Source of the DNA: Mobula hypostoma
Taxonomy: Eukaryota
DNA length: 64,000 bases
Direction: 5' to 3'
NCBI RefSeq assembly: GCF_963921235.1
Contig: NC_086097.1
Span: 161,388,001-161,452,000, forward strand
Shown: positions 23,340-56,204 of the stretch, piece by piece
Position numbering within the stretch: position 1 is the first letter of the stretch
How the letters are laid out: each line of letters opens with the position of its first letter
Made by a program: the position numbers and the translations under genes
Notes under the pieces: model-generated
What the model saw: the letters and a program-made list of their open reading frames with translations, nothing else
Told to the model about the DNA's origin: nothing
The model's database searches: none

Positions 23340-23513
23340 CCCCAGCGCTGCCAGAGCCAGTAAACGGAGGGTGCGCCGTTAAGCTCGGTACTGAGCGCGG
23401 CCACCACAGCAACCCACTGTTCAGCGAGCTGAGCCGGCCCGGCACGGCACAGCAACGGACGGACGACCGTCGGAGGCCACCCCGCTGCTTTACCTGTCCG
23501 TCCGCGTGAAGAG
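23340..23513 (+). other. slc45a4: Putative slc45a4 first (5'UTR) exon; start approximate
   Basis: GC-rich and AUG-free. Ends in the donor-like GAG|GTGGGA (GT 23514-23515). Alternative donors at 23529|30 and 23532|33 cannot be excluded. Confidence 0.55.
23455..23513 (+). CDS. Putative non-AUG uORF, part 1: (M)DGRPSEATPLLYLSVRVKR
   Basis: ACG at 23455 with G at -3 and G at +4. The frame is open across the predicted splice to 56123. Confidence 0.45.
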
Positions 23514-23625
23514 GTGGGAGATCCGCAAGGTGGTAAAGGAGAGGAGTGGGGAAGATAGGGTGACATCGCGACTATCGGATGCTCGAGCGGAAGGGTGCAG
23601 GTCGGCTGGTGGCAGGTGGGAGGAT

Positions 23626-24340
23626 GGGTTAGATCAGAGAGCGGCATGGGGGGGTTAGATCAGAGAGCGATATTGAATCAGAGAGCGATATTGAGGGGGG
23701 TTTAGATCAGAGAGCGATATTGAGGGGGGTTTAGATCAGAGAACGATATTGAGGGGGTTAGATCAGAGAGCGGTATTGAGGGGGGGTTAGATCAGAGAGC
23801 GGTATTGAGGGGGGGTTAGATCAGAGAGCGATATTGAGGGGGGTTTAGATCAGAGAGCGATATTGAGGGGGGGTTTAGATCAGAGAGCGATATTGAGGGG
23901 GTTAGATCAGAGAGCGGTATTGAGGGGGGGTTAGATCAGAGAGTGGCATGGGGGGGTTAGATCAGAGAGCGATATTGAGGGGGGTTTAGATCAGAGAGCG
24001 ATATTGAGGGGGGTTTAGATCAGAGAGCGGTATTGAGGGGGGGTTAGATCAGAGAGCGGTATTGAGGGGGGGTTAGATCAGAGAGTGGCATGGGGGGGTT
24101 AGATCAGAGAGCGATATTGAGGGGGGTTTAGATCAGAGAGCGGCATGGGGGGGTTAGATCAGAGAGCGATATTGAGGGGGGTTTAGATCAGAGAGCAGTA
24201 TTGGGGGGTTTAGATCAGAGAGCGGTATTGAGGGGGGGTTTAGATCAGAGAGCGGCGTTGAGGAGGGGTTAGATCAGAGAGCGGCGTTGAGGGGGGGATT
24301 AGATTAGAGAGCAGCGTTCTGGGGGTTTTAGATCAGAGCA
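23626..24340 (+). repeat. G-rich minisatellite A, unit of about 29-30 bp GGGGGGTTAGATCAGAGAGCGATATTGA, more than 20 copies
   Basis: Direct tandem repeats with variable G-run length. Confidence 0.95.
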
Positions 24341-24399
24341 GTGTTGGGGTGAAGGTTGGGGCAGAGCACGGCATGAGGGGAGGTTTAGGTCAGAGAGCG

Positions 24400-25122
24400 G
24401 CATTCTGAGGGGGTTTAGAGCGGGGTGTAGGGTCGTGGGCGGGGGTTAGAGCTGGGCGGGGGTTAGAGCGGGGTGTGGGGTCGTGGGCGGGGGATAGAGC
24501 GGGGTGTGGGGTCGTGGGCAGGGTGTGGGGTCGTGGGCGGGGGTTAGAGCGTGGGCGGGGGTTGGAGCAGGGTGTGGTATCGTGGGCGGGCGTTAGAGCG
24601 GGTTGTGGTATCGTGGGCGGGCGTTAGAGCGGGGTGTGGGGGTCGTGGGCCAGGGTTAGAGCAGGGTGTTGGTTTGTGGGTGGGGGTTAGGGCAGGGTTT
24701 GGGGTCACGGGGGTGTTAGAGCGGGGTGTGGGGTCGAGGGCGGGGGTTAGAGCGGGGTGTGGTATCGTGGGCGGGGGTTAGAGCAGGGTGTGGGGTCGTG
24801 GGCGGGGGTTAGAGCAGGGTGTAGGGTCGTGGGCGGGTGTTAGGGCAGGGTGTGGTATCGTGGGCGGGTGTTAGGGCAGGGTTTGGGGTCACGGGGGGGT
24901 TAGAGCAAGGTGTGGGGTCGTGGGTGGGGGTTAGGGCAGGGTGTGGGGTCGTGGGCGGGCGTTAGAGTGGGGTGTGGGGTCGTGGGTGGGGGTTAGAGCA
25001 GGGTGTGGGGTCGTGGGCGGGGGGTAGAGCGGGGTGTGGGGTCGTGGGCGGGGGTTAGAGTGGGGTGTGGGGTCATGGGCAGGGGTTATAGCAGGGTGTG
25101 GGGTCACGGGGGGGTTAGAGCA
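24400..25122 (+). repeat. G-rich minisatellite B, unit of about 29 bp GGGGTTAGAGCGGGGTGTGGGGTCGTGGGC
   Basis: Direct tandem repeats; shares the GGGGTTAGA core with array A. Confidence 0.93.
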
Positions 25123-25992
25123 GAGTGCGGAATCAGGGAAGGAGAGCAATCATGGTAGAGAATAAGAATGTCCAGTGGGGGTGGGGCATTGTGGGTACTG
25201 TTTCAGGGTGGTGGGGGCTTACGGGGGACTGGATCAGGGGGTGTTGAGGGGGCTAGAGCAGCGTGGGGGGATGTTGGGGGAATTGAGCCAGGGTACAGGG
25301 TATATGGGTTGAGGGGAACTGGAGCAGGGTGGGTGGGGGTTGCGTGGCAAGTGGGGTTTGGGGGGGAGTGGTGGGGGTCTGGAGCAGGGTGGGGGTGTTG
25401 AAGGGGACTAGCACAGTAGGGAGGGAGGTTTGAGAGGGGATTTGAGCTCAGTAGGGAGTAGAGCAGAGCAGAGCAGAAGAGTGAAGTTTGGGGATAGCTG
25501 GAAAAGAAACAGATTTGCTATGGGAGGCTGTCGGAGAAGCGGTGCACTTCAGATGGTGTATGTGAATTGGGGTGGATGTGTTAAGTAGAGGGCGGCTATA
25601 GGAGAGTGGGTTGTGGAGATGAGTGGGATGGGATGTAGGAGGATGGAAGCTGTTGTGAGAGAAGGGGAGTCGTAAGGCTGGAGGGTCAAGTTTTGGGGCA
25701 GGGCGGGCCAAAGGATGAAGTCAGTAGGGGGGAATGAGACCTAAGGGAGTTGGCAGCTGGGGCTCTAAAGCTGGCAGATGGAGTGGAATAGGTGGCGGAG
25801 ATGTTGCAACAGAAGGTGAAGGAGAGAAGAGGAACGAAGGATGGATGCAGATTTGCTGGGCAGGGTATAGAAGTCTGCTGCAAAAATGCGACAGTGTACC
25901 AGGATAGTGTGTGATGGGTACATCAGCTGGATGGGGGTGGGGGCAGTGAAAGGTTGATGGCTTATCATGAAGCGAGCTGCAGACTTTTTCAG

Positions 25993-26067
25993 GGTGACGC
26001 AAGCTGATGTCCTCAGGAGGGCGGCGGTGCTGTTACCCAGCTGAAACTAGCTTCACATCAGCTTCTA
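25993..26067 (+). other. Candidate alternative 5'UTR exon of slc45a4
   Basis: Acceptor CTTTTTCAG| (weak) and donor CTA|GTAAGG. 75 nt, locally CpG-retaining, contains GTG CTG TTA CCC AGC TGA. Confidence 0.3.
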
Positions 26068-28274
26068 GTAAGGGTAGCCAGGGCTGCAGTGTGGTGGGAG
26101 CGTCTAATGCAGATTTTTTAAAAACAGAAACATTGCTCAAATGCCTAATTCTGAAGTATATTAAATGTTAGTGATGCTCTAATTTGTCCTTCTCCTACTG
26201 GAGCTTATAGTTCAAATATTCCTAAACTGCTTATTTATTCAGTGTTCTCTTTTGGTGATCTGATGAATCTGTCTATTCAGAGTTCTCAACTGAAGCATAA
26301 CCATATCCAGTGTTTAACAGCTACATGTTTTTAATTGTTAGTATTCTGTTTATTTGGTGTTTGATTTTGATCCCAGTTTGGTTGTATATTATGCTCGTAA
26401 ATTCTATGCGTTTCAGCTTATTTTATACAAAGACTTAAATTATTTGTCCAGGGATTTGAATCCCTTTATTACTGGGTTAGTTTGAGAGAAGTGGTGTAAA
26501 GATGAAACTTCACAATCTTTTTTTGTCTCCAAAAGTGAAACCTATAAGGCACATTGATAATGCATTCCATTTAAAAAAAAACAGGGAAAATTACTTGGAA
26601 AATCCAGCCCCTTTTAAATGCTTAGGGTGTGTTTTAGAATGCTTCGAGCGTTTCTATTGGTAAGCTTTGCATTATTCTATTTGTCACATAGTTAGGATTA
26701 GATTAGCCATTAAGGTTAAGACATGCTTGCATAAAATCACATTTACAGTTGCATAATTGTTTACTATAGGAATCTGTTTCTAAGTCTTAAATCTGCTGGT
26801 TTAAGGTGTTGTTAGCCATGTGAGGTTTTGCAATCTGGACTGAAGTGAGAATGCTAAGTAAACAAGGATGGTCTAGTCTTTTCATGATTTTTCTGAAATT
26901 CCTAATATCAGGTCTGGGTAATTTTTTTGGGGGTGGCTGTTTTATGGAAAGATATTCGTGAGCCTTGTTTGTTAAAATGCCTTTTTAAAAAGAAACACAG
27001 TTGTAGGTTTGCTTTATGTTTTTTTTAACTATGATGCTATATATATTTTTCACCTTGGCTTCTCCATAGAATCTGTTATCTAACCATACTAATTAAGGTA
27101 ATCTTTTTTTTAAAAAGCACTATAAATTTCCTTGTCAAAACATAGCCTGTCTTTTAAGGGTATTTTTTGGGAACCAAAGTACATTAATAACTATTTGAAC
27201 TTCATAAATGTGCAAGCAATTTTTATTGGTTATGTCTGGAGCTTTCTCCTGAAGAATTCTGGATGATATTGTGGATGTGAGGTACTGAATAAATATTTAA
27301 TGTTCTCTAAAAAGTTGAAATGTCTTCCAAATATTAATATAAGGTTTTCTTTGCCCTATGTTTGAGATGAATCGTAACAATTTTATCATAGAACAGTACT
27401 TCCAATATTTGTCTGCAAATAGTTGCGTTGGCACTAGATTTTTGACTTAAAAACTAGCTGATATATTACTAGTAAACTATTGCATTAAATTTATTGTGTG
27501 CCGAAAGTCCCACTTTTAATTAAAACTTGTGATATTTGTTTTGGTATGCATCCAACTATCTGTAATTTGATAGGGATGTATCCACTGCTTACATTTTGCA
27601 GCCCCTGGAAAATTTACTGTAGTTGAAAGGTGAGCTGTTCAAATCAGCATACCTGTAATTGATAATTATAACTTGCAGCAGGATTAAGGTCTTGCCTGTA
27701 TGTATGAATATTTTGGGATCATTTCAGTAGAACTATAATTTACAATATGGTAGCCTTAGAAATTTTGAAAATGCAGTCACTGAACCTAGCAGTAATTTTA
27801 GAAATAATCCAGATATAATTTATATAGATGCCTTTTTACAGATACAGAACTGCAAAAGTCTTGGGCACATGTTTTATATATTTAAAAAAAATCTATAAAG
27901 TAAAAATGCTTTCAAAAGTGAAATGAAAATTTTCTAAATATCAAAAAATATATAAAGAGCACTAAACAGCAAAAACACCAAATCAATGTTTGGTATGACC
28001 ACCCTTTGCCTTTAAAACTGCATCTATTCTCTTTGGTACACTGTCATGCAGTTATGTAAGAAAACTGGCTAGTAGATTGTTCCAAGCATCCTGCCACAGT
28101 TCTTCTTTAGCTGTCTTGCTTGCTTCTGTATCTGCAGGTAGTCCCAGACAGCCTCAATGAGATTAGGGCTCTGGAAGCCATGCCTTAGAAACATAGAAAA
28201 TAGGTGCAGGAGTAGGCCATTCGGCCCTTCGAGCCTGCACCGCCATTTATTATGATCATGGCTGATCATCCAGC

Positions 28275-31200
28275 TCAGAACCCAGCCTTCCCTCCATACC
28301 CCCTGACCCCTGTAGCCACAAGGGCCATATCTAACTTCCTTTTAAACATAGCTAATGAACTGGCCTCAACAGTTTGCTGTGGCAGAGAATTCCACAGATT
28401 CACCACTCTCTGTGTGAAGAAGTTTTTCCTAACCTCGGTCCTAAAAGGCTTCCCCTCTATCCTCAAACTGTGACCCCTCGTTCTAGACCTCCCCAACATC
28501 GGGAACAATCTTCCCGCATCTAGCCTGTCCAATCCCTTTAGGATCTTATACGTTTCAATCAGATCCCCCCTCAATCTTCTAAATTCCAACGAGTACAAGC
28601 CCAGTTCATCCAGTCTTTCTTCATATGAAAGACCTGCCATCCCAGGAATCAATCTGGTGAACCTTCTTTGTACTCCCTCTATGGAAAAGATGTCTTTCCT
28701 CAGATTAGGGGACCAAAACTGCACACAATACTCCAGGTGTGGTCTCACCAAGGCCTTGTACAACTGCAGTAGTACCTCCCTGCTCCTGTACTCGAATCCT
28801 CTCGCTATAAATGCCAGCATACCGTTCGCCTTTTTCACCGCCTGCTGTACCTGCATGCCCACTTTCAATGACTGGTGTATAATGACACCCAGGTCTCGTT
28901 GCACCTCCCCTTTTCCTAATCGGCCACCATTCAGATAATAATCTGTTTTCCTATTTTTGCCACCAAAGTGGATAACTTCACATTTATCCACATTAAATTG
29001 CATCTGCCATGAGTTTGCCCACTCACCCAACCTATCCAAGTCACCCTGCATCCTCTTAGCATCCTCCTCACTGCTAACACTGCCACCCAGCTTTGTGTCA
29101 TCCGCAAACTTGGAGATGCTGCATTTAATTCCCTCATCCAAGTCATTAATATATATTGTAAACAACTGGGGTCCCAGCACTGAGCCTTGCGGTACCCCAC
29201 TAGTCACCGCCTGCCATTCTGAAAAGGTCCCGTTTATTCCCACTCTTTGCTTCCTGTCTGCTAACCAATTCTCCACCCACACCAATACCTTACCCCCAAT
29301 ACCGTGTGCTTTAAGTTTGCACACTAATCTCCTATGTGGGACCTTGTCAAAAGCCTTTTGAAAATCCAAATATACCACATCCACTGGTTCTCCCCTATCC
29401 ACTCTACTAGTTACATCCTCAAAAAATTCTACGAGATTCGTCAGACATGATTTTCCTTTCACAAATCAATGCTGACTTTGTCCGATCATTTCACCGCTTT
29501 CCAAATGTGCTGTTATCACATCCTTGATAACTGACTCCAGCAGTTTCCCCACCACCGACGTTAGGCTAACCGGCCTATAATTCCCCGGTTTCTCTCTCCC
29601 TCCTTTTTTTAAAAAGTGGGGTTACATTAGCCACCCTCCAATCCTCAGGAACTAGTCCAGAATCTAACGAGTTTTGAAAAATTATCACTAATGCATCCAC
29701 TATTTCTTGGGCCACTTCCTTAAGCACTCTGGGATGCAGACCGTCTGGCCCTGGGGATTTATCTGCCTTCAATCCCTTCAATTTACCTAACACCACTTCC
29801 CTACTAACATGTATTTCGCTCAGTTCCTCCATCTCACTGGACCCTCTGTCCCTTACTATTTCTGGAAGATTATTTATGTCCTCCTTAGTGAAGACAGAAC
29901 CAAAGTAATTATTCAATTGGTCTGCCATGTCCTTGCTCCCCATAATCAATTCACCTGTTTCTGTTTGCAGGGGACCTACATTTGTCTTTATCAGTCTTTT
30001 CCTTTTTACATATCTATAAAAGCTTTTACAGTCCGTTTTTATGTTCTCTGCCAGTTTTCTCTCATAATCTTTTTTCCCCTTCCTAATTAAGCCCTTTGTC
30101 CTCCTCTGCTGAACTCTGAATTTCTCCCAGTCCTCAGGTGAGCCACTTTCTCTGGCTAATTTGTATGCTACTTCTTTGGAATTGATACTATCCCTAATTT
30201 CTCTTGTCAGCCACGGGTGCACTACCTTCCTTGATTTATTCTTTTGCCAAACTGGGATGAACAATTGTTGTAGTTCATCCATGCAACCTTTAAATGCCTG
30301 CCATTGCATATCCACCGTCAATCCTTTAAGTGTCATTTGCCAGTCTATCTTAGCTAATTCATGTCTCATACCTTCAAAGTTACCCCTCTTTAAGTTCAGA
30401 ACCTTTGTTTCTGAATTAACTACGTCACTCTCCATGTCAATGAAGAATTCCACCATATTATGGTCACTCTTACCCAAGGGGCCTCTCACGACAAGATCGC
30501 TAATTAACCCTTCCTCATTGCTCAAAACCCAGTCCAGAATAGCCTGCTCTCTAGTCGGTTCCTCGACATGTTGGTTCAAAAAACCATCCCGCATACATTC
30601 CAAGAAATCCTCTTCCTCAGCACCTTTACCAATTTGGTTCACCCAGTCTACATGTAGATTGAAGTCACCCATTATAACTGCTGTTCCTTTATTGCACACA
30701 TTTCTAATTTCCTGTTTAATACCATCTCCGACCTCACTACTACTGTTAGGTGGCCTGTACACAACTCCCACCAGCGTCTTCTGCCCCTTAGTGTTACGCA
30801 GCTCTACCCATATCGATTCCACATCTTCCCGGCTTATGTCCTTCCTTTCTATTGCGTTAATCTCTTTTTTAACCAGCAACGCCACCCCACCTCCCCTTCC
30901 TTCATGTCTATCCCTCCTGAATATTGAATATCCCTGAACGTTGAGCTCCCATCCCTGGTCACCCTGGAGCCATGTCTCTGTGATCCCAACTATATCATAA
31001 TCATTAATAACAATCTGCACTTTCAATTCATCCACCTTATTACGAATGCTCCTTGCATTGACACATAAAGCCTTCAGGCGCTCTTTTACAACTCTCTTAG
31101 CCCTTTTTAATGCTTGCCCTGGATTTGTCGGCCTGCCACTTTTACTTTTCCCCTTTGTACTTTTTGCTTCTACGCTCACTTTACACCCCTCTGTCTCTCT

Positions 31201-31275
31201 GCACTGGTTCTCATCCCTCTGTTGTGAACTAACCTCCTCACACCTAGCCGCTTTAATTTGATTCCCACCCCCCAA
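28275..31275 (-). pseudogene. CR1 ORF2 (APE endonuclease plus RT) split by a single +1 frameshift at 29604-29610
   Basis: The 566-aa and 395-aa ORFs join into PLFKKGGREKPGNYRPVSLT if one A is removed from an A7 run. Confidence 0.9.
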
Positions 31276-31280
31276 CCATT

Positions 31281-32105
31281 CTAGTTTAAAGTCACCTCAG
31301 TAGCCCCCGCTAATCTCCCTGCCAGGATATTGGTTCCCCTAGGATTTAAGTGTAACCCGTCCTTTTTGTACAGGTCACACCTGCGCCAAAAGAGGTCCCA
31401 ATGATCCAAAAACTTGAATCCCTGCCCCCTGCTCCAATCCCTCAGCCACGCATTTATCCTCCACCTCATCGCATTCCTACTCTCACTGTCGCGTGGCACA
31501 GGCAGTAATCCCGAGATTACTACCTTTGCAGTCCTTTTTCTCAACTCCCTTCCTAGCTCCCTATATTCTTCTTTCAGGACCTCATCCCTTTTCCTACCTA
31601 TGTCATTGGTACCTATATGTACCAGGACCTCTGGCTCTTCACCCTCCCACTTCAGGATATCTTGGACGCGATCAGAAATATCCCGGACCCTGGCACCAGG
31701 GAGGCAAACTACCATCCGAGTCTCTGGACTGCGTCCACAGAATCGCCTATCTGACCCCCTTACTATCGAGTCCCCTATCACAACTGCCCTCCTCTTCCTT
31801 GCCCTACCCTTCTGAGCTACAGGGCCAGACTCTGTGCCGGAGGCAGGGCCACTGTCGCTTCCCCCGGGTAAGCTGTCCCCCCCAACAGTACTCAAACAGG
31901 AGTACCTGTTGTTAAGGGGCACAGCCGCCGGGGTACTCCCCATCACCTTCCTTTTCCCCTTCCCCCTCCTAACCATGACCCACTTGTCTGCCTCCCGTGG
32001 CCCCGGCGTGACCACCTGCCTTCCACTCCTCTCTATCACCTCCTCGCTCTCCCTGACCAGACGAAGGTCATCGAGCTGCAGCTCCAGTTCCGTAACGCGG
32101 TCCCT
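31281..32105 (-). pseudogene. CR1 ORF1 (coiled coil plus SGNH/GDSL esterase domain), N-terminally truncated
   Basis: VIGDSIVRG, VHIGTNDIG and DGLHLN motifs. The first codons of the ORF-track call (32174-32106) are flanking DNA. Confidence 0.88.
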
Positions 32106-32341
32106 TGTGTTGTAGAACTCCTTTCTTCTTTTCACTGAATCAGAATCAGGTTTAGTATCACCAGCATATATCATGAAATTTGTTGTCTTTGAGGCAGCAG
32201 TACAATAAGAGGGAAAAAAACATGAATTATGGTGAATATAAATAAAGTAAATAAAATTTTAAAAAGTAGTGGGGTAGTATTCATGGGTTCAATATCTGCT
32301 TAGAAATTGGATGGCGGAGGGGAAGAAACAGTTCCTGAATC

Positions 32342-32820
32342 CAGACATCCCACCTCTCCTGGAAGTTCTGGGAGTCTCCCGCATATTAATAGTGGCTCCC
32401 TGATGCCCGCAAATTATATACAATATCCCGGAAATCAATTTTTTGAGAGTGTGAGAGAGCAAGAGAGTGCGCGAGAAAGCGAGAGAGAGCGTGCCATGGC
32501 AGAGTGTTCCAAAAAAAGAAAATATAAAACGTACGTCACCCCAGACTACCCTAAAGTGTACCCCTGCCTAATAGGGGTCAAAAATAATGACAGTTTTGCT
32601 CGCTGCACTGTTTGCAACAGTGACTTTTCTATTGCCCAAGGTGGTTTAAGACTTTAAAAGACATGCTGAGGTGAGTTTAACAGGTGTCATTTGTTCATTA
32701 GCATAGCTAACGTTATTTAAACTAGCTGGCCAGCTGCTAGGGAGCTACTGTATTACAGACATCCCACCTCTCCCAGAAGTTCCGGGAGTCTCCCACAAAT
32801 TGATGGTGATACCTCCCACC
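32342..32820 (+). mobile_element. hAT-like DNA transposon fragment with BED-zinc-finger-like remnant
   Basis: FARCTVCNSDFSIAQGG. The block CAGACATCCCACCTCTCC..GGGAGTCTCCC is repeated at 32342 and 32756. Shares AAAAGACATG.TGAGGTGAGTTTAAC with 45970-45995. Confidence 0.6.
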
Positions 32821-35753
32821 ACCTCCCTGACGGTAGCAATGAGATAGAGCACATACTGGGTGATGGGGTCCTTAATGATGGATCCCATCTTTTTGAGGCA
32901 TCGCTCCTTGAACCTCATTGCTTCATCGTGTGTTCGGGGTCATTGTCCTGCTGCAGACTGAAGATGGGACAGACAAGATGCCTGCCTCCCTGATGGTTTT
33001 GCGTGATGGGTGAGAAACTGTACTCTCAACACTGAGGATCCTGTTAATTCTGACTGGATCACCAACTCCATTTGCAAAAATGCAGTTCCGTATCTGCAGG
33101 GAACCTCTGATGTGCTTCACTGTTTACTGCTGACACTCATCCATGTAGGGCTCTTCAGCTCTTTTATGAACAAACTGTCTCCTGTTTGAAATTTTAAAAA
33201 TTTCAGATTTTGACGAAGGTCCAGAGCACTTGCTGCCATTGTTCAGCATCTCAGTCCTTGTGGTTTTTTTTGCATCAGTGAGTCTTTTGGTGTTCCCCCT
33301 TTGGAGGAATGGCTTTTTTGCAGCAACTCTTTCATGAAGATCACTTATCTGAACTGTAGAAGGGCATACTTGTGTTTCAGTGGTTTCTGTGAGTTCGGAG
33401 CTGATAGCAGTGCTGGACTTCTGATTTAGAAGAGACGTCAGTTTGATGTATCTCTCATCTGCGGTACTCAGTTTCTGTGGCCGACCATTGTGCTTCAGGT
33501 CCGCCATGAAATTTCTGCTTGGGAGAGACCTTACAGATGCAGGACGACCACCTTGTGTCTCGTTGCTATGCTCACTCTTGCCATAGTGTTAACGATTTGA
33601 AGGTTAATCTGTCACATCAGCCACATCCTCATCTTTTATTTTGGCTGTCCTTTGCCCAGGTTGATTCTTCTACATCTGTTCCTGTTTCAGTTAATCAGTT
33701 TAGTTCATTCAACTCATGCCAATGATCTGTTGGTTATCTTTATCTAATCATGCACTGGGCTATATACCTACAAAGTAATCAAGTTTTTATTTGAGAAGTA
33801 TTTTATTACTTTAATGAAATACAAAAATTTTATGAATATTTGGAATTCTAAGATTTGCTCTCTTCTACTGACACTAATGCAGAAGACAAAAAATAACCAT
33901 CTAAAATAAAATTTATATTTAAAAAAAGTCTAGGGTGCCTAAGACTTGCATAGTACTGTAAATAAGTGGTTAATTTGTGCAGATTGGTTTTAAAAATCCA
34001 GAGTGATATTAACATTATTGCTTGAACGTTTTTGCAGCATTTTCTGTCCTTTCTGTCAGGTTTTTTTTTAGCATTTTCTTATTTGACAGGCATTTTGTGT
34101 TTGAATGTCATCTGTTTGTCCCACTTGAACACTCTGCATACAACTTACAATGAAATTTCAGTAAAGTGGTGAAGCTAATAAAGATACTGCTTAACTTTTT
34201 TTGCAATCCAGTTTCATTTCTGACTTTGGTAATGTCTGAGGAGTTTCTGTTTGGAATTCTCCCTACTGGCATATGGGTTTCCTTTATAATCCCAAAATAT
34301 GGATTGGCAGGTTAACTTGACCACTCTAAATACAAGGGTAGAATCTTGGGTATATTGATAGGCATAGTAGGAAACTAATACGGGTTAGGTTAGTATTACA
34401 GCAAAAATGGGTGTTTGATGGTGAGCATGGACTGCTTGTGCATTATTGTACTATCTTTCAGATGATCACAGTGATAGAACTACAGAACTTAATAGGTACT
34501 GGAGCACTTGCGGATCACCTGGGAAATCTTATTGCCACTAATATTATCAGCCTGTCTTTGCATTTAAAGCTGAGTGAAGAAACTGCATACTAGTTCTGGG
34601 ATTTTATAACAATACAGGAAAAATAGTACAACTATGACAATAATTTAAGTTTGTTCTTTCTCTCCTCCTGATCTGGGTATTTCAGTAACCATTTTCTGCT
34701 TATTATTTGCAACGTATATATGCACATCAGCTCAGACATTAATTTGATGTTTTTTTTAAATTCTGGCTTGTTTTGACCTCTCTAGATGTTGCTCAGCTAA
34801 CATTGTTTATACCTACTATTATTTGTTCCTCTAAGTGCTTTGCTGTTGTAAATATCCACTCTTTCTAAACAGCTTCTGTGGTTTGATATTGAAATGGGTA
34901 ACTAAGCCATCCCTCAGTAATGAACAGGTTCTGTTTTTAAAAACTTATTTTTGATTCGTAAGTCAGAAAATACATAATTGCTATGGTAACTATATTCCAC
35001 AATATTGAAAGATATGATATGGGGTAATTAAAATGTTTATTTTCTGTTTTCCCCTACCTAGTTACAATAGTAGAGAATGAGAATGTTCAATGAAATGCTG
35101 GTTTTAAAAGGGCTTCAAATATCAGTGATGCCTTATTTAATAGTGTTATTACACAAGTATCTTTAGAAATGATTGCTTGTCAATTTCTAAAGAAAATCTC
35201 GTGACTTTTTATAGTGTAATTGGCAGCCTGAGATCTTGAGATGGTGGTGTCTGATAACTCTCGGATAGTAAACTGGTTCCCCCCCCCCCCCCCACAAGAC
35301 TGATTTTTGTTGAATTAACATTATTGTGTGAACTCACTGATATGTACAATATCAATTAGTCAAACATTTGTAAATCAGAGGCCCTGTGTTGGCAGTTTGT
35401 AATGATGATTTGTGCTTAAGGTGAGGGGACGCAGTATTTTACAGCTTAGCACTTAGTTTATAAGTGCTTCATTTGATAAGAGATTTTAGTGCTTTTATGT
35501 CCCTCCTGTAATATGGGTAGACCTGCAACTGACCTAACTAGAGTTTAATAATATCCAACATAATTTCATATCCTTGTGTTCTCTATCTTGCCTTAAAAAA
35601 AGCTGTATGCAAAGTACTTTTCCTTATCATCTAATCTAACGTTATGCAGCAGAGGCTGCAAAATAAGATCCTATGTTTCTTTGCATTTCCTGTTCTAATG
35701 TATATTTCCTTGCCCCAATTGTCCTTCCCAAAAACACTACTTCAAGCTAACAA

Positions 35754-42290: not shown

Positions 42291-42447
42291 AAAGCATGGA
42301 TCCATTAGAAATAGATTACACTGTGCAGGGAAGGTCCTGTCTCAATCGTGAGGAAGTGACCAAGTGATTGAGGGCAGGGCAGTGGATGTTGTAAATGTGA
42401 ACTTTAGCAAAATTTTAGACAAGATTCCTTGTGTTCTGGATAACTAT

Positions 42448-46065: not shown

Positions 46066-46494
46066 ATTTAATGGATATTTAAATGGATGTCAAATGCTGG
46101 AGAAGTAAAGCTTTATGGGTTTGTTTGCAAATTTGAGTATGGTCAAGATTTTTAAGCATCCATTCAGATTAGATTAGATAATCTAATTTTAGCAATCCAA
46201 CAAGAATAGAATAATGCTGTCAGCATTTCTTTTCTGCATTCAATTTGCATAGTTGAAATTGTTATGTGGGAGTTCAAAGACAGAATAAATCACCTATTTA
46301 GGGTGTAAGACCAGATAGAGAGTAGGAAATTTGACTTGTTATCCTGAGTATTTTGTTTTTCCAGTGCAATGCAGAACCACTAGGGACAGATATGCAAGCC
46401 TTCAGTGCCACTGTGGATGATGACACATTACATTTCAGCTGGAGACGCATTTAATGATATACTGCTATTATCTTGCTTGTATTACATTTTAGTT

Positions 46495-46715
46495 TTGAGG
46501 TACAGCGTGGAACAGGCCTTCCAGCCCTTGGAGCTACGCTGTAACCTTGGCCTCATCACGGGACAATTTACAAAGACCAATTAACCCACTAACCTCTGGG
46601 AGGAAACCAGAGCACTTGGAGGAAACCCATACATTCCACAGGGAGGCCATACAAACTCCTCACAGAGGGCACTAGGATTGAATTCTGAACTCAGACTCCC
46701 CAAGTGCTAACAGTG
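46495..46715 (-). mobile_element. SINE, same family as 21360-21616
   Basis: Shared GGAGGAAACCAGAG.AC..GAGGAAACCCA core and CR1-like tail. Confidence 0.65.
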
Positions 46716-49700
46716 ACACTATGATGATATACAGTAGCTAAGCACAAAATATTTTACAACATGTTTTATAAATTTACTGAATAGCTTGCTTGTAACTTGC
46801 AGTTAGGTTTTCACCAATTTAGTTCTTACCAGCTTATTAGTTCAGTGCATACATTGACAATGAATTTTCTGTGATTTAATCAATTAATAGACACCAAAAA
46901 TTTGCTTTATTACTTGAACATATCATTGTTTTTATTGCCTGCATGATTGGTTTAGCAAAGATTCCCAAACTCTTGAGCCCGCAAATCTATGCTACTAGAT
47001 GTGTGGAGATGTGTTTTGGGGACTCTGTGGGAGAGTTGTTTCGTGCAACTAATGTTTTCAAGGATGCTTTTTAGAACTGACTGTAAACATGCCTTGCAGC
47101 TATTGTTTCACAGCTTTTGAAATCGAATTGCCTTGCTCAAATCTTAAAGCCATTATAAACAGAGCAGATGAATAGATGAACAGACATGGATTTATTCTTT
47201 CTAGACATTAAAATAAGATTAATGATTTAAATTGTAAAATATCCAAGATTTAGATATCAATCTTTGAGTTATTTCTGCAGATATAATTTGGGATTACATT
47301 TGTACAACCAGGAATAAAAGTATAAAATATGCTAATCTCCGATATTTTATTTTCTACATTGAGAAATGGCATGAATTTCCTGAAAAATATTTCAATCCTT
47401 TGTAGGAAAATGCAACTTCCTGGCTGCTAGATTGTAAAGACCTTAGAAAATAAACATTGTCTATACTTGTGACTAGTATTTAAGAAGCTGGTCTGTGATG
47501 ACTTTCAATATCTTGTTGGGATATTGGCAATTTTGAATGTCAAGAAGTGATAGTTGGACTTCCCGGAGATGGACAATCACTCTGTAGCCTTTATAGCATA
47601 AATATTCCTACTCACTTAGCAACCCAAGCATGAATGTTGTCTATGTAATGCTGCACGTGACTTGAACTGCTTCATAATGCAGTTGCAGACTGACCTGAAC
47701 ACTACTGTTGTCAGAGTGAAGGTTATTTGACAGGGGACAGTTCATAGTGAAGCACTTGAAGATAGTTAGATTCAAGAATTCTATCTGATAGCTTCAGAGC
47801 ATCATTCCAGAAACTGAGCAATAACAGATTGACTGGCTATCTTGGGGGTTTTTTTTTGCGCAGGATTGAAGAATAAACTTTGATCGGGATTATCTATCCC
47901 CACAGGTTACACCCATGAAGTCTAACGCTTGCTTGAATCCTTGCAGTTCAGATCTTGGTTTGGTATCTCTTACAAAAAAAATTGCATTCACTGCACTTTC
48001 TGGGAGGGGCGGAGTTGCGGATATCAGTACATTTTTTCTCTCTGGTTTAAAGTGACTTAGCTTTTGGACATTGTCCAACTAGGTCCTATAAAATTCCAGC
48101 AAATGTTTTGCATACATTAAGTGTTGAGATTCTGAGAAACCTTGAATATATGAATTAAATGAATGTATTAATCATTCTCTGTACTAATGTACTAATAATT
48201 CTAATCCAGAGTATTAACTTGCATCTTTATGATGCCAGAAGTTATTTTTTCCCCCTAACTACTGTGATGATCTAGTCATTTTCAATAATTGTATATATCC
48301 ACTTAGTGTATTCCCAATCTGGTCCACAGCCCCCTTGCTTAATAGTATTCAACCATGGCATAAAAAAGGTTGGGAACCCTTGCTCTAGATAGTGGTGGCA
48401 CACATTTCTGCTGCTAGTCCATACTGCTTCAATAATATCTGGTTTTGAGTTTTCACATTTAACATGATGGTAGTGCTGCACAACATTTTATGGTTACCAT
48501 GCCATAATTGCTGTTTTGTTCACCTTCCAGATTTATTTAATTAGTTTAAGTTGCCTTCCTCTGTATTCAATATGGAATTTAAACTGAAGACTAGTTTAAT
48601 GGTCTATATCTCTAAATATTACAGTAGTAACTTGACCATTATTTTTGTACCCGTGAGCAAAGAATCATTGAATTTTTATTGTGCCCTTTTTGAGAGCAGC
48701 CACAAAAAGGCTTGACACTTTATATAAATCATTTAAGTGACAGGATAATTTGTGCACATACTGCACCATGGATTGATGTAGGTGTACCTGTTTCTCTGCA
48801 ATGTCATCTATAGATGTAGGTAACAATGTTGAGGTAATATAAACTCTATCCTCATTTGGATGCATATTCATTTACATTGGGTCTGTTTCTTGGCTTTCCC
48901 CATTTCAATCAATGGACCATATTTTTAAAACAAAATACGCTGTGGAAGCCCATTATTTGTATCTTCTAATTGTTAACTTCTCTGTGTCTCAGGTGCATAA
49001 TTGACACTAGATTCAGGAAATTGAAGTAAGAAAAGCTGGAAGCAGACTATTCAGGATAGTTAATGAGTAAAGGTATAGCAATATTTCAGATGGCTTTGCT
49101 GATCTGGAAGGTTTTTATTCCAGATTTGTGTCTTTTGCATTTGTATAAAAAGACATGTTTTGAGTCTGTTTCTTGTAAAATGAATACTGATTATCAAGTA
49201 TGGATTTCTCCTTTTTTCTCTTTGAAGGACATCTTTCCAGCATTGTCTGAACATTACTGTTAAATTCATGAGGGCACTTGGACAGAATGTTTATCTTGTT
49301 TTTCAGATAGCATCTCTCCAGTTACTTTAAAAAGTTGCCTAGTTTGTACTTGGACAGCTTCCTCCAGTTACATTATTTACACCGAAGCAGAACAGGAATA
49401 ATCTTCAATGCCACTTAAAACACTTTTGAGTCATTACTGTGGTTTGGAAAGTGAATGGGAAGTATTGTTGGATCAATGAATCCTACTGCTGTAAATTTCT
49501 TTAAGGTGTCCTTTTAAGACTCGTTTTTACGAACCATCCAGCAGTTTCAGTCACTATTAATGAAAGCTTACTCTGTTTAATTCCTCAGTTGAAGTTGTCT
49601 CTTGATCATTAGACCATGGCCCTGGGTTACTAGTACTTAAACCACGAGAGATTTTGCAGATGCTGAAAATCCAAAGGAACAAACACAAAATGCCAAAGGA

Positions 49701-51024
49701 ATTCAAGGGGCAAGGTATGTGGGTGGAGGAGGGGAAATAATTGAGTAGATGGAGGTGATAGGTAGAAGTAAAAGGACTGAATGAGGAACCTGATAGAGTG
49801 AAATGGGAGCCAGAAAGGGGAATGAAATAAGAAAAGGGATGGGTGAGAGAAATTACCAGAAGTTAGAAAAATAGAAATTTATGCCATCAGGTTGGAGGCT
49901 GCCCAGACAAAATGAGGTGTTGCTTCTCTCTCCTGAATGGCCTCATTGTAGCATTAGAGGAGGCCTTGGACTAACATGTTAACCATATGAACTAGGGTCC
50001 CAGGCTGGTCACCCCATTGGGTTTTACTTATGAGCCACCTCAGGTTTCTCTTGCTATTTTAGATTTTATAGATTTTTCTATTTCCATATCTGCCTGTCCC
50101 TTTGCTTTCTTTGGATTAAGTTTTTACTTGCCACTAAGCTTCAGCCTTGTTTGTCTTAATTGTGGTTGAACTGATTTATCACTACAAGTTGGAGTAATAT
50201 TGCTAAATTGGATACTCTAAAATGAAGTTTGTAGCTGTTGATCCTATTATTGTTACATAGTTTGTCATTCCGGTGGCTGCTATAAATACTTAGGGATAGA
50301 TTAATGTTGACTTTGACTTAGCTCGAGGTCATTTCACCAGAATTCAGTCAGATGGGGGAGGGTGGATAAGGCAATACATTTAATGACAAAAGATTTACTA
50401 AAAGGTACAAAGTACAATGTTTTAGCATGGCAGCCTTGTCAAAAAGGAAGGTAGTACAAGACCCCAGAAAGTGTCAATTGACATGCAAACTTGGTTTGGA
50501 GGGGCAGGGAAGTAGTGAATTGTGGTTGAGTTTTTATCTGGAAAAGTTAAGCCAGTGGGGTTAGACAAAGCTTGGTACTCGATCTCTTGTTGCTTATTGT
50601 ACCCCTGAATAAATTAGGCTTAAAAACAATGTGATAAAAAAGTTTGCAATTAATACAAAGATTGACATTTGCATGGAGAACTTTAATTTTGGGAGGGTGG
50701 ATAGTTGAAGCAGTAAAATAGCATTCTAATCCAGGGAATGTGAGGTTAGTGGCTTTCCGTGGATAATTTAGTCTGAATTTGACTGGGATAAAACTGGAAA
50801 TAAACCAATGTAGAGCAGACTTGGAGGCAATTTGATGAGGCAGAGCTGAACTGAGGTTGTGGACTCACTTCTGTGAACTTCAGTTCTGAATACACTTCAT
50901 TTACTTTTATTATTCACACTTTTTTTTTCTCTCTGCACATTGGGTGCTTGGTCTTTTGTTTTCATTGGGTTTCTTTGTTTTGTGGCTGCCTGTAAGGAGA
51001 TAAAACTGAAGATTGTATAAAGTT

Positions 51025-52158
51025 ACACACACACAATGCTGGAAGAACTCATCGGAACTGGAGGAAAAAAAGATGAATCAGGGTTAGAAAAGGGGAGGGG
51101 AGGAAGAAACACAAGGTGATGGGTGAAACCAGGAGTGTGGGGGGGGGTGAAGTAAAGAGCTGTGAAGTTGATTGGTGAAAGAGGTACAGGGCTGGAGAAG
51201 GGAAAATCTGACAGGAGAGGACAGAAGAAAAAAGAGGAGGGGCAGAGCAGTGATGGGCAAGTGCAAGTAATGCGAGAAGGGGAAAAGCACATCTTTCCCT
51301 CCTCCCCCCCCCCCCCACTTCCTGCTTTTGCAGGGTTCGCTCCCTACGCAACTTCCTTGTTCATTCATCCCTCCTGGCACTTATCCTCGTAAATGGAACA
51401 AATACTGCACCTGCACCTGCCCCTCACTACCATTCAGGGCCCTAAACAGTCCTTTCAGGTGAGGTAACACTTCACCTGAAGTGTGTTGGGGTCATCTACT
51501 GTATCTAGTGCTCCAGTGTGGCCTCCTGTATATCGGTGAGACCTGACGTGGATTGATAGATCATTTCGCCGAGCACCTGCACCTCCTCTACCAGAAAAAG
51601 TGGGATCTACTTCTCATTTCCATACCGACATGTCAGCCTATGGCCTCCTCTACTGTCACTGAGGCCACACTCAGGTTAGAGAAGCAACACATATTCTGTC
51701 TAGGTAGCCTCCAGTCTGATGGCATGAATGTCAATTTCTCGAACTTCCGGTAATGACCACCCCACCCCTCCTTCATCATTTCTCATTCCCATTCCCTCTC
51801 TTACCTTATCTCCTTACCTGCCCTTCATCTCCCTCTGTTGCTCTTCTCTCTTTCTTCCATGGCCTCTGTCCTCTCCTATCAGATGCCCCCTTCTCCAGCC
51901 CTGTATCTTTCACCAATCAACTTCCCAGCTCTTTACTTCACCCCTCACCTATCATCTTGTTTCTTCCTCCCCTCCTCCTCCACCTTCTAACTCTGACTCT
52001 TCATTTTTTTTCTCTCTCTAGTCCTGATGAAGGGTCTCAGCCTGAAACATCAATCATACTCTTTTCCATAGATGCTGCCTGGCCTGCTGAGTTCCTCCAG
52101 TATCTTATGTGTGTGTTGCTTGGATTTCTAGAATCTCCAGATTTTTTCTTCTTTGTGG
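51025..52158 (+). mobile_element. Penelope-like element 3' part (GIY-YIG remnant) with an inverted 5' segment
   Basis: GVIYCI..CGLLYIGET at about 51487-51543. 51025-51285 is an inverted copy of the 3' end. Hammerhead core CTGATGA..GAAAC at 52024-52048. 12-bp TSD TTGTATAAAGTT (51013-51024, 52159-52170). Confidence 0.85.
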
Positions 52159-53144
52159 TTGTATAAAGTTGTGCATACTTTGAACTTGGTTAAAAACTTA
52201 GGGCAATGCATCCTAGTGTGCTTCTATTCCGTCTTGCAGCTTTTACTTTTAACCATAAATTCACTTTACCTGTACTTTGACTCTCATGCAGCTCACTCCA
52301 GTGATAATTGAAACGAGCTTGTTCCCACCCATACAAGTGATCAGTCCTGTATCCATTTTCCAGGCCTGGCCAGATCACCCCTTTCCCCACAATTGCCTTA
52401 TTGTACAGAGATCACATCATTGCTAATTGAGTGAAACAAGCCCATTTTGCAGCATCTTTTCAAGCAATACTCAATTGAGCGGACAGTGTCTGGAAAGAAA
52501 AGTAGTTAATCTTTTATGTTCAGGATCCTTTGTCAAAACTGGCTTCAATGAATCAGTCCTGGAAATAAAACATTCTCGTTTTCCACAGATAACTATTTGT
52601 CCTGCGAGCACTTCCAGTATGTTGAGATTGATTTTTTATTTCCTATGCTGCGGTCCTTTAAGCTGCTGCCTTTATCCATTGAGAAAGGTCCACTTGGTAC
52701 TTTTATATGTAGAGCTACAGAGGCCAGAGCAAACCTTCTGGCCAACCATGTCCAGGCCAATGATGTATCTTTATGTACTAATCCCATTTACCAGCTTTCT
52801 GTCTTGCCAATTCAATATTCATCCAGATTCTAAACTGTGTGCCTCCACCACTCAATTTGGGTAGTCTATTCCAGATTCTAATTTTCCCTGGGGGGGTAGG
52901 GGAAGTCTTGGATCTTCTCTAAACCTCTTCCCTGCCCTATAACTGTCCTCGCTTTTATAGGTAGCTGTGATTTGCTTTCTGGAAATGTTCCTGTTGTATA
53001 CCTTCTCTGCTTATTTTGTATGCCTCCAAGTTCTCCATTCACCAGCACCCTCCCACCCCAAAACCTCTGTTTCCCGTGTTCGAAGGAAACAAACCCAGCC
53101 TTTTGTTTCCCCTTGTGCCAGAATTGGTCCAACAATGTGATGAA

Positions 53145-53247
53145 GCAACACACACAGAATGTTGGAGGAACTCAGCAGGCCAGGCAGCATCTATGGAAAA
53201 AGGTGAACACTCGACATTTCGGGCCGAGACCGTTCATCAGGACTCAT
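53145..53247 (-). mobile_element. Single PLE terminal-repeat arm with a degenerate hammerhead motif
   Basis: Minus strand GAGTC CTGATGA ACGGTCTCGGCCC GAAAT GTC; 9-bp TSD TGTGATGAA (53136-53144, 53248-53256). Confidence 0.75.
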
Positions 53248-54959
53248 TGTGATGAATCTCCTTTGTATCCTTTCTGGTGAATTCACATCCTTTCTGTGGT
53301 GTAGCATCTAGAATTATACACAGAACTGTAGCTATAGCCCAATGAATGTTTTATGCCCCTGTTCTTGGATTCTGTGCTTCAGCTCATGAAGAAAAGTATT
53401 CCGTTTTCCTTCACCCCTTTACCTATCTGTACTGATACATTCGGGAATCATTTACTTATTGCGACCAGCACCATATAGTGGCTTCTACATTGGTGAAACC
53501 AAGCACTGATTAGGTGACTTCTGCATAATGTCTTTAGTCTGCATGGGTGACCCATCATTTTACTTCCCCATCCACAAATACCGAGCACAGCGTGTAAAAA
53601 GCAGGTTGCTTTACATTCACTGAAGTTCTTGAAAATGTTGTCACCACTGCAATACACAAAATTTAAGGAACAAAGCAGATATCATACATTAAACAGTGCT
53701 TTCTAATGTCAAAATATTATATTTTGGCAGTTAACAACATCTGTGGAGAACAGCAATTAATGTTTCTGACTGTTTTATTCCTCTCTTTTTTGGTTGCAAA
53801 AGTAAAAACACTTTAAAGTGCTCCATTGGATGTAACTTAACCTATCTTCTTCATCCACTTGCTCTAAACTTTTTGGTTGCATGTGTATTCTGACGTAAAT
53901 CACTTGACTGTAGAATGTTTTCAGAGCTGAGTATTAGTTGTATTGGTAGTGCTGTAATGGCTTAACTGGTTAGTTGTAAATTGGCAATGAAAGGAGGTGA
54001 ATTCAGCAGTCACTCTTAAAAGTTTGCATTCTTAGAGCTGTCCCATCATTAATATAAAATGGCCAATATTGCTAGTGTGGGTTACTAGAAATAGGTTAAT
54101 GGCCTGAAAAATTGAAAGGAATGAAGTCAGCAAGTGAAAGGTTAATGCAGCTGCATTTACAGACATGGTATTCAGTATTTATCATGACAACTGCTGAACC
54201 TCTAAGGTTACTTTCTAAGCTGCAGTAAGCTTAAAAGCTATCTAGCACAACATTTAAAGCACAAATTAGATAGGATCTTTTGTGTTTAAGGCTGTGGCAT
54301 TCACTTCCAGGAATGGCAATTGAATTAGCATATCTGACGGTTTGTACAAACCTGTGGAGGAGGTGGGAGGAATGGAATATGACAAGTGTTTTTTGACAAT
54401 GTTTTTAGGACAATTTTCTGACTTGGTGGGTAATGTCAGTCACTTGTGTGCTCACTGAATTTTAGTATTATGCTGCCAATTTAAAGTTTTGATGAATAAC
54501 ATGACTAAATGATTGTGGAAAAAGACAATTCTACTGAATCTGCATGAAGTTGCATCTGTATTACCAGTTGGTGTGTGTCAATGTTGGGAGGTATTAGTGT
54601 GACTGTGTCTGAGGAAGTACTGGAGCCTTGGGGCCAAAGCATTTGGGGAGAATTTGTTTTTCCAGTGCTGGATGAGCGGTGAATGGTGAGATTAAGTGAC
54701 CTGCTAGGCATTAAACAGCCTAATATAAGTTTAGAAAATTCTTTCTATAAAGCAGTCTGTAAGAAAGATGCTATAACAATTTGGATGTTGGCTGACTGTC
54801 TAATGCTTCAGTATTTTCTGTTGATATTTGCTGAAAGCTCTGATACTTTGAATTGCTTTTGATTTAGAATTTCTTTCCAGTACTGCATTGGAATGATCCT
54901 TACAGGGAGGTAGTACTATTGAATAGCACATAAGTGCATTTTCAAAGAAAGTATGCAGT

Positions 54960-55620
54960 GCCCCTACTTAGGAGTTTGCAAAGATTTGGCATGACATCCA
55001 AAACTTTAGTAAACTTCTATAGATGTACGGCAGAGAGTATATTGACTGGCTGCATCAACGCTGGTATGGAAACAGCAATGCTCTTGAACAGAAAATCCCT
55101 TTTTAAAGAAAAAAGTAGTGGACACGATCCAGTTCATCATGGGTAAAGCCATCCCCACCATTGACATATAACATTGTCACAGAAAAGCAGTATCCATCAT
55201 CAGGGACCCCACCACCCAGCTCGTGCTTTTTTCTTGCTGCTACCATCAGGAAGATGGTACAGGAGCCTCAGGATTCACACCGCCAGGTTTAAGAACAGTT
55301 ATTACACCATCAGCCATCAGACTCCTGAACCAGAGGGGATAACTTCACTTGCCTCATCATAGGTCTATTCTCACAACCTGTAGGGTCACTTTCAAAGACT
55401 CTTCATGTCATGTTCGCTATTTATTTATTGTTATTGTTTCCTTTTTCTTTTTGTATTTGTACAGAGTGTTGTCTTTTGCTCACTGGTTGTCAATGCTGTT
55501 GATGTGGTCTTTCATTAATTCTACTATGTTTATTGGATTTCTTGACTATGCCTACAAGATGATGAATCTCAGGGTTGTATTTGGTAACGTATATACTGAT
55601 GATAAGTTTACTTTGAACTC
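54960..55620 (+). mobile_element. Rex1/Babar-like LINE 3' fragment
   Basis: LRSLQRFGMTSKTLVNFYRCTAESILTGCI; LLPSGRWYRSLRIHTARFKNSY. Confidence 0.78.
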
Positions 55621-56122
55621 CTTATTACTGAATAAGACTATTGAATGAACATGAGATGATCTCTTGACCCCATTCTACTCATGATCTTGTACTTTTGTCT
55701 ACCTGCACTTTTTCTGTAGATGCTGCTCTTTATTCTGCATTGTTATTGTTTTACATTACACTACCTCAGTGCATTGTGTAAATGATAGAATCTGTATGAA
55801 CCATATGCAAGACAAACTTTTCACTGTAACTCCGATTCCAATAACACTTTGCACACATTTGCTGGAGTACAAATTAGGCAATGAAAATGTCCAGTCTTTG
55901 GTCAAGTCTGCTGCTTTATATTTTACTTTGAAGTTGTAATCAAATTTTCACTTGCTGACATTGAGTTATAATTTGTGAAACTTATGCTAACTTAATATTT
56001 GAGATCTAGTACTTCCAGTTTTTCTAATGCGCCATTAAAGAATTTTTAGATCATGCGCAACATTGCCAAGTAACTTCTAGCTACACTAAATGGCTCTAAG
56101 ATTTATCTCTTTCTTGTTTCAG

Positions 56123-56204
56123 AACGGTCGCTCGATGGGGAGCAACAGAGAACTACCTCTTTGCATCACTGCCTCATCTCTACACTGCAGAAACTCCTCT
56201 ATAA
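56123..56204 (+). CDS. Putative non-AUG uORF, part 2: TVARWGATENYLFASLPHLYTAETPL*
   Basis: Continues the exon-1 frame (AG|A = Arg) to TAA at 56202-56204. Confidence 0.45.

Follow-up and report, generated by a model that had tools for sequence, protein, structure and literature searches.

The slc45a4 mRNA of Mobula hypostoma carries several short, mutually overlapping reading frames that are common to this genome and land vertebrates and that probably act as a brake on transporter output. We lean toward regarding this cassette, which lies in the leader part of exon 2, as old and selected: the reading rests on the splice, on AUGs and stops kept in an amniote-like sequence, and on a human catalogue entry in the frame of the first AUG. 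Positions are those of the window (the whole stretch of DNA analyzed, 64,000 nt), and features are on the + strand unless stated otherwise.

The gene is slc45a4, as a sequence-only reading of the window had it: the coding start, at ATG 56417 or 56426 (56417–56648), matches the human SLC45A4 structures 9giu and 9ghz (E 8e-25). A CpG island at 23100–23750 (no strand assigned; CpG observed/expected 0.9–1.1 vs. 0.31 for the window) is likely the slc45a4 promoter with the first exon, and exon 1 sits inside this main non-repeat CpG island of the window. The non-coding exon 1 (23329–23513, 5′ end approximate) is placed from the loose ends of contigs X1, X12, and X14 and their identity with the window; as proposed earlier, it is devoid of AUG, with no ATG in a scan from 23196 to 23578. 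Intron 1 (23514–56122, 32,609 nt, GT...AG) follows from the contig junction and the window sequence, in which the donor GAG/GTGGGA after 23513 and the acceptor TTTCAG/A before 56123 are both present. Exon 2 (56123–56648, 526 nt), covered by contigs in 4/4 runs, comprises a 294-nt leader and the first 232 coding nucleotides.

The 23513/56123 junction, predicted from the sequence, is used in three of the four assemblies (X1, X12, and X14). In these, the contig departs from exon 2 at 56121 and continues with the end of exon 1, and the 30 loose letters of X1 are identical to window positions 23482–23511. The contig of X9 starts at the junction, with no partner shown. The evidence comes from four runs examined among 22 listed; none of the 22 is recorded as RNA, and the case for splicing comes from the contigs, all four of which run on into the next coding exon and are therefore spliced transcripts. 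Use of the alternative donors 23529 or 23532, the second of which shifts the spliced frame discussed below, is seen in none of the four assemblies. The 5′ extents of X1 and X14 differ: X1 has 183 letters before the junction, with a 5′ end near 23329, and X14 has 372, which, if colinear, would include ATG 23195.

Six AUGs occur in the exon-2 leader (56135, 56204, 56224, 56236, 56304, and 56331), all missed by the sequence-only reading; one is within the ACG-started frame that it had proposed (frame A, see below) and one overlaps the stop codon of that frame. AUG1 starts uORF-B (56135–56257; 40 aa, 47–48 aa in amniote-like homologues), the human orthologue of which is c8riboseqorf113 and the stop of which is 159 nt before the main AUG. 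The conserved core (56204–56257) is the AUG2-initiated, 17-codon C-terminal part of uORF-B and begins with MKLVLTEW. Nested out of frame is uORF-C (56224–56247), with AUG3 and seven codons (MAINMDF-stop, or MAIMDF-stop in the amniote-like orthologue L007), and its inner AUG4 at 56236 gives MDF-stop. AUG1 has a pyrimidine at −3 and G at +4, and AUG2 has A at −3; AUG3 and AUG4 are both AUG-G, AUG4 with A at −3. At their stops, uORF-B ends in RQ or SQ and uORF-C in DF. Two further AUG uORFs (56304–56351; AUGs 56304 and 56331) are not conserved, AUG 56304 being altered in X12 and both AUGs being without counterpart in L007.

Because L007 was found via the transporter sequence and not via the uORF, it constitutes an unbiased test, and it is the single sequence of the distant DNA comparison. 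It keeps 4/6 AUGs of the window and both cassette stops. The length differences are of 21, 3, and 6 nt inside uORF-B and of 4 and 4 nt just outside, the chance of three triplet indels being, by our own estimate, about 1 in 27. In the core, 40/42 nt are identical (vs. 31/48 just upstream, Fisher p = 0.0005), as are 14/14 aligned residues, and neither nucleotide difference alters a residue in frame B (2 silent, 0 replacement; p = 0.024). When the window is compared with three close relatives, 0/54 core sites vary vs. 14/159 in the downstream leader (p = 0.023). Both methionines and KLVLTEW.LWIFN are kept in six distinct peptides, a set of matches biased toward open frames. The AUG, open frame, and stop of uORF-B, by which a conserved peptide uORF (CPuORF) is recognized, are seen in human, in L007, and in four more distinct peptides, besides the window itself.

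Much of this "peptide" conservation is nevertheless forced by the overlap with frame C: the pairs E-W, L-W, and F-N of uORF-B are imposed because frame C holds two AUG-G and one UAA. The N-terminal part of uORF-B is without protein-like constraint (pN/pS 0.34/0.41). PPW is absent from uORF-B in all six peptides, as is PS-stop; Pro-Pro occurs in some amniote homologues and is absent from the window and from peptide P0011. Searches of the genome itself with either peptide give only the locus itself above noise. The paralogous slc45 loci L003 and L004 score at shuffle level against the cassette, and so do the fish-like contigs L008 and L009, which have <340 nt upstream of the match, so that absence is not implied there. 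Viral and prokaryote contigs, scanned by pattern and by protein, give no matches. One sequence listed in the P0004 peptide cluster, P0007, was set aside as an unrelated enzyme of bacterial type.

In human, uORF-B is already catalogued. Under the gene name, c8riboseqorf113 appears as a Ribo-seq ORF catalogued as translated (Sandmann 2023, PMC10032668, supplement file 2, row 6580; two matching rows in the six files searched); its last 18 residues are those of L007 and nearly those of the window. It has the same gene and position as uORF-B and an AUG start (M-G), with 48 aa. The entry is labeled conserved, as judged among mammals, with negative PhyloCSF (−54 in primates, −543 in mammals) and detection by no mass-spectrometry study (PMC10032668). 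It is a catalogue row that names no function, and the nested uORF-C and the match in a distant genome are not in the matching rows. The supplement of Mackowiak 2015 gave no match in 9/16 files, and the main text of Takahashi 2020 has no SLC45. We found no paper on the function of uORF-B and, in the literature on an SLC45A4 uORF, no description of the cassette or its function. Deep conservation of the ORF may already be recorded in supplementary tables. An "SLC45A4" shift between uORF and main ORF in the accessible parts of PMC5758873 and bioRxiv 106922 was treated as a misprint for SLC35A4, because the main text of the source cited there (PMC4383229) names SLC35A4 16 times and SLC45A4 never.

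The sequence-only reading had placed the control elsewhere, in frame A. Its layout is as described: ACG 23455 is in a strong context (ACAGCA-ACG-G), with in-frame TAA 23380 and TGA 23392 upstream, and joining 23513 to 56123 gives one 46-codon frame, with its TAA (56202–56204) 212 nt before ATG 56417. The exon-1 part (23455–23513) is open in the window and not conserved as a spliced ORF; the exon-2 part, from a frame scan (56123–56204), ends with a TAA that overlaps AUG2 and is largely dictated because AUG2 is followed by A. A second strong-context ACG occurs upstream at 23444 (21 codons). That the ACG-initiated product is an AZIN1-uCC-like polyamine sensor, with stalled ribosomes queuing back to the ACG, is very improbable. 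The junction is real, the frame is open and free of indels in the visible parts of X1, X12, and X14, and 8/16 residues match L007 in frame A (pN/pS 0.53). However, a strong-context ACG in exon 1 opening at least 46 codons is found in 243/3000 dinucleotide shuffles, and a CTG, GTG, or ACG start by the same criterion in 582/3000, so that the frame-A ORF is not beyond chance (8%–19% of shuffles). In L007, where the acceptor-to-AUG1 distance differs by 4 nt from that of the window, a TAA two bases after the acceptor closes the frame; in P0004, residues M-K and M-I force a TGA in frame A just upstream. The three close relatives show 6 replacement vs. 2 silent changes, with Pro>Leu in 3/3. Over the 16 codons alignable with L007, pN/pS is 0.31/0.58 (Fisher p = 0.10, not significant), compared with 0.34/0.41 for uORF-B and 0.04/0.59 for the coding region. 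The proline motif suggested for this frame is missing, the frame having neither PPW nor PS-stop and ending PL-stop. A HMMER search with the exon-2 part against 1.84 billion representatives returned three matches, all to unrelated repetitive proteins, a weak test since non-AUG ORFs are seldom predicted. The ACG frame looks like a chance by-product. What stands of the earlier proposal is the gene, the splice, and the idea of conserved uORF control on a polyamine-transporter mRNA; the AZIN1-like ACG-initiated peptide, lacking conservation at the amino-acid level and closed in L007 and P0004, does not.

With somewhat more conviction than doubt, we predict that the exon-2 cassette attenuates translation by setting a repressive frame against tiny uORFs that permit reinitiation. 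Scanning ribosomes would partly leak past AUG1, given its pyrimidine at −3, and many would start at AUG2, so that both starts would feed one frame ending in the invariant 17–18 codons. This frame probably represses, because ribosomes would elongate or terminate slowly on the conserved segment. Ribosomes passing AUG2 would meet AUG3 and AUG4 and translate ORFs of 7 and 3 codons, short enough for reinitiation at the main AUG, and transporter output would depend on how ribosomes are split between the long frame and the tiny ones. As the putative signal shifting this split we tentatively favor polyamine feedback over general initiation signals and constitutive damping. At high polyamine, the proline-free conserved end of uORF-B, or else the stop codon of the MAGDIS-sized uORF-C, might stall ribosomes; the resulting queue would raise initiation at the weak AUG1 and block the tiny reinitiation-permissive ORFs, turning transporter synthesis off. 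That the mRNA of a neuronal polyamine transporter bears such a two-frame polyamine switch throughout the jawed vertebrates is possible but doubtful.

As the first reading had it, SLC45A4 transports polyamines; it is a neuronal transporter linked to pain, and its structure has been solved (PMC12507699). How animals control polyamine uptake by feedback has found little explanation: in the part available, a 2026 preprint describes uptake regulation as poorly understood and attributes antizyme control to ATP13A3. With its 54-nt core, four AUGs, and two stops, the cassette offers a small and exact set of mutations for studying a possible self-limitation of transporter synthesis, and perhaps a way to push the SLC45A4 level up or down. 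If polyamines are without effect, it would be one more deeply conserved repressive uORF.

The main rival to the attenuator, rather unlikely in our view, is conservation of the core as an element of the RNA or DNA, for example an enhancer, a splicing signal, or a circSLC45A4 site that binds protein or RNA, with uORFs that are translated passively or act as sequence-independent dampers. Exon 2 is, we assume, the exon that forms circSLC45A4, and the cassette offers a second explanation for its conservation. The accessible parts of PMC11260338, PMC12694936, and PMC12634670 portray circSLC45A4 as a functional RNA with high conservation. The core, at 95% nucleotide identity, exceeds the best coding block, and human PhyloCSF is negative; the 44 nt past the uORF-B stop are also invariant in close relatives and therefore point to constraint at the RNA or DNA level. 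Against such an element, indels are only of triplets inside the ORF and not outside, and the silent-site divergence of the core (2/7) does not fall significantly short of the coding-region value (16/27, p = 0.21). Nor is there a structure signal, Rfam giving 0 matches at E ≤ 1 and folding nothing unusual in 6/6 segments (z −1.14 to +1.91), and read-through of the main ORF over the back-splice is not conserved (33 extra codons in the window, an immediate stop in L007). A trans-acting role of uORF-B, or of its 17–18-residue AUG2 product, as a small protein, with the transporter as one conceivable target, is also improbable. Its hydrophobic, tryptophan-rich C-terminal segment is invariant in the six peptides and human, but mass-spectrometry support is lacking, the negative PhyloCSF counts against it, and conservation is limited to the C terminus, as for a stalling peptide or overlapping signals. 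The ESM Atlas gives no convincing look-alike of the uORF-B peptide (no match at ≥0.9, best score 0.77).

GCN4/ATF4-type cassettes combine short reinitiation-permissive uORFs with inhibitory ones. That order is reversed here, the short ORFs being downstream of the long-ORF starts, so that the choice would be by leaky scanning and not by delayed reinitiation. Other known cases in the polyamine pathway are the mammalian AMD1 MAGDIS uORF and the tiny and small uORF pair of plant SAMDC, in which the tiny ORF overlaps a longer conserved one. The 6–7-codon uORF-C is M-A-x-x-D-x-like, a likeness to MAGDIS too short to test, and in the plant pair the tiny ORF precedes the long one, whereas in the cassette it is nested in the 3′ end of the long ORF. 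AZIN1 and HOL1 are precedents for uORF control in the polyamine pathway, and GCN4 is also treated in the accessible part of PMC11550727. The uCC of AZIN1 resembles uORF-B in lying on a polyamine-pathway mRNA, with 40–50 codons and a conserved C terminus, but it has a conserved near-cognate start and a PPW stall (PMC11550727, PMC7530721, as far as the accessible parts go). By contrast, uORF-B opens with AUG and lacks PPW, and in the ACG frame both PPW and conservation are missing. Yeast HOL1 carries, like the cassette, an AUG uORF on a polyamine-transporter mRNA, but requires a PS-stop end, whereas the cassette has two nested frames ending RQ-stop or SQ-stop and DF-stop (PMC11550727, same part). 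As in HOL1, leaky scanning would be the control point here, and the switch, if true, would bring HOL1-like autoregulation to vertebrates, though with another stall sequence and with two frames nested one in the other.

The coding part of exon 2 (56417–56648) aligns to the N-terminal end of human SLC45A4 (structures 9giu, 9ghz; E 8e-25); in the 3.48-Gb Mobula genome this match is single-copy, with two weaker paralogous matches besides. The CpG island at ∼23100–23750 is likely the slc45a4 promoter. Four of 22 listed sequencing runs, from four coded organisms, were examined for the splice. In each, the main contig spans exon 2 and then enters the next coding exon; the end of exon 1 forms the 5′ loose end in three of the four contigs, and the fourth starts at the junction itself. 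Thus the splice 23513/56123 is used. The statements of the sequence-only reading about the sequence are all borne out on re-reading. In one run, X14, an additional contig extends into the downstream intron. Because 372 letters precede the junction in X14, exon 1 may be longer than drawn or a further exon may lie upstream; near its apparent 5′ end (23320–23345), a pyrimidine tract followed by CAG resembles a splice acceptor.

The exon-2 leader contains six AUGs, absent from the earlier reading. Scanning metagenomes with the N-terminus of the transporter as query yielded 296 candidate stretches and, from these, three loci. One of them, L007, is a complete exon 2, which we call amniote-like because its protein start resembles the human one. 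Its leader aligns to that of the window with a score of 114 (shuffle maximum 33), with four AUGs and two stops in correspondence. uORF-B (56135–56257; 40 aa, 48 in L007) starts at AUG1; a second in-frame AUG within it (AUG2, 56204) overlaps the ACG-frame stop. uORF-C (56224–56247), in another frame, starts at AUG3, has an inner AUG (AUG4, 56236), and reads MAINMDF-stop (MAIMDF-stop in L007). Between window and L007, the landmarks differ in length by 21, 0, 3, 0, and 6 nt within uORF-B and by 4 and 4 nt immediately before and after it. Over the core from AUG2 (56204–56257), window and L007 agree in 40 of 42 aligned nucleotides and in all 14 aligned residues; the two nucleotide differences are silent in frame B. 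All 54 core sites are invariant in the window and three close relatives (p = 0.023 vs. the downstream leader), as are the 44 sites that follow. In the window, uORF-B shares its frame with the main ORF; one TAA and 53 open codons lie between them, so that read-through of this TAA would yield a fusion of the two. The frame match is not kept in L007, nor in X9, X12, and X14 (1-nt or net 4-nt deletions between). We did not observe the cassette in the short sequence upstream of the coding start in two fish-like slc45a4 relatives (L008:1–470, L009:1–382); a GT microsatellite is present there in L008.

Protein searches with uORF-B alignments gave six representatives, that is, four distinct further peptides of 47–48 residues from AUG1, all retaining both methionines and KLVLTEW.LWIFNSNSQ; these matches are selected for open frames and known without DNA context. 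In these peptides (P0004–P0010), two or three consecutive methionines stand at AUG2, just before the core, at positions held by isoleucine codons in the window and L007, a pattern suggestive of reinforced initiation there. The human orthologue, c8riboseqorf113, is free of the open-frame selection bias: it is a 48-aa SLC45A4 uORF, found by gene name (Sandmann 2023, PMC10032668 supplement). Its entry carries the label conserved, a negative PhyloCSF, and no study with mass-spectrometry detection. uORF-B is thus already known as a human catalogue entry, in which frame B is listed as translated. A second human SLC45A4 uORF in that supplement, young, lies further downstream; since the catalogue holds only ORFs >15 aa, it says little on uORF-C.

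The sequence-only reading had tentatively assigned the control to a spliced, ACG-initiated peptide uORF of 46 codons (ACG 23455) with AZIN1-like polyamine feedback. Such an ORF is unremarkable: a strong-context ACG in exon 1 opens at least 46 codons in 243 of 3000 shuffles (582 of 3000 with CTG, GTG, or ACG as start). A second strong-context ACG, with a 21-codon ORF ending within exon 1 (23444–23509), overlaps the first. In L007, the ACG frame is closed by a TAA two bases past the acceptor, which lies 16 nt ahead of the shared AUG (12 nt in the window); L007 may instead use an acceptor lying 9 nt further downstream. In P0004, residues M-K and M-I force a TGA in this frame; this peptide probably stems from a spliced transcript, since its uORF-B is identical to that of P0005 while the upstream part differs. 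Among the three relatives, 5 of 81 sites vary in the exon-2 part of this frame, not significantly fewer than the 14 of 159 in the downstream leader (p = 0.62). Two of these changes are silent and three are replacements: Pro>Leu, shared by all three relatives, Ala>Val, and Ala>Thr. Exon 1, of which 30 letters are visible and were read by eye, contributes Ser>Pro, Lys>Glu, and Lys>Ala. The frame does share 8 of 16 residues with L007, and in this block its pN/pS (0.31/0.58) ranks ahead of both other frames (p = 0.10, not significant), a constraint much weaker than that of the coding region. The human catalogue, reportedly restricted to AUG starts, is no test of the ACG. Altogether, the ACG model is very improbable and its peptide is not conserved; uORF control of slc45a4 keeps its support in the conserved uORFs of the leader, with the interpretation redirected to the AUG-initiated cassette.

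We consider it fairly probable, from the conservation pattern, that this exon-2 cassette is a selected translational control element. The residues of the core need care, as E-W and L-W arise from AUG-G, and F-N from UAA, in the overlapping frame C; since the overlap accounts for much of the residue conservation, either frame (B or C) may be the primary one. We take the circSLC45A4 circle to be slc45a4 exon 2. A constraint on the core at the RNA or DNA level would agree with the reported conservation of this circle (PMC11260338, PMC12694936, and PMC12634670), with the negative human PhyloCSF, and with the invariance continuing past the uORF-B stop, but it is rather unlikely given the triplet indel pattern in uORF-B, the lack of a structure signal, and silent sites in the core that are not clearly less diverged than those of the coding region (p = 0.21). 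That the uORF-B product acts in trans as a micropeptide is highly unlikely.

For the translational control element, the initiation contexts suggest a division of labor. AUG1 has T at −3 and G at +4 in both the window and L007, AUG2 has A at −3, and AUG4 has A at −3 and G at +4; by standard scanning rules, AUG1 and AUG3 would be leaky and AUG4 strong. Ribosomes initiating at AUG1 or AUG2 would translate the invariant end and terminate 159 nt ahead of the main AUG, whereas those initiating at AUG3 or AUG4 would make 7 or 3 residues, terminate 169 nt ahead of it, and should then be capable of reinitiating. Frame B is expected to be repressive and frame C permissive, and slowing of ribosomes in the core would queue scanners back onto AUG1. 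Polyamines are a tentative candidate for the signal because of the gene function and the AZIN1 and HOL1 precedents for polyamine-linked uORFs (PMC11550727), and not because of a motif. That the two frames form a polyamine switch on the mRNA of the transporter itself is conceivable though doubtful.

Functionally, the cassette would resemble a conserved peptide uORF joined to minimal uORFs. Its motifs place it outside the AZIN1 uCC and yeast HOL1 families: PPW and the terminal PS-stop are absent, and Pro-Pro occurs only in some amniote homologues of uORF-B. In the literature searched (some supplements and subscription papers lying outside it), we found nothing on uORF-B function, uORF-C, or conservation beyond mammals. 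A uORF/main-ORF shift ascribed to SLC45A4 (PMC5758873, bioRxiv 106922) was set aside: the source cited in PMC5758873 concerns SLC35A4, and the naming in both is probably a propagated misprint.

About 150 nt past the exon-1 donor, two G-rich tandem arrays with strong GC skew begin (23659–25134; a 29-bp unit in 26 copies and a 31-bp unit in ∼22), both units including the telomere-like GGGGTTAG. Long open frames occur at many places in and around the introns (for example, 28278–32258 and 60428–63991) and presumably resemble LINE-type reverse-transcriptase/endonuclease fragments.
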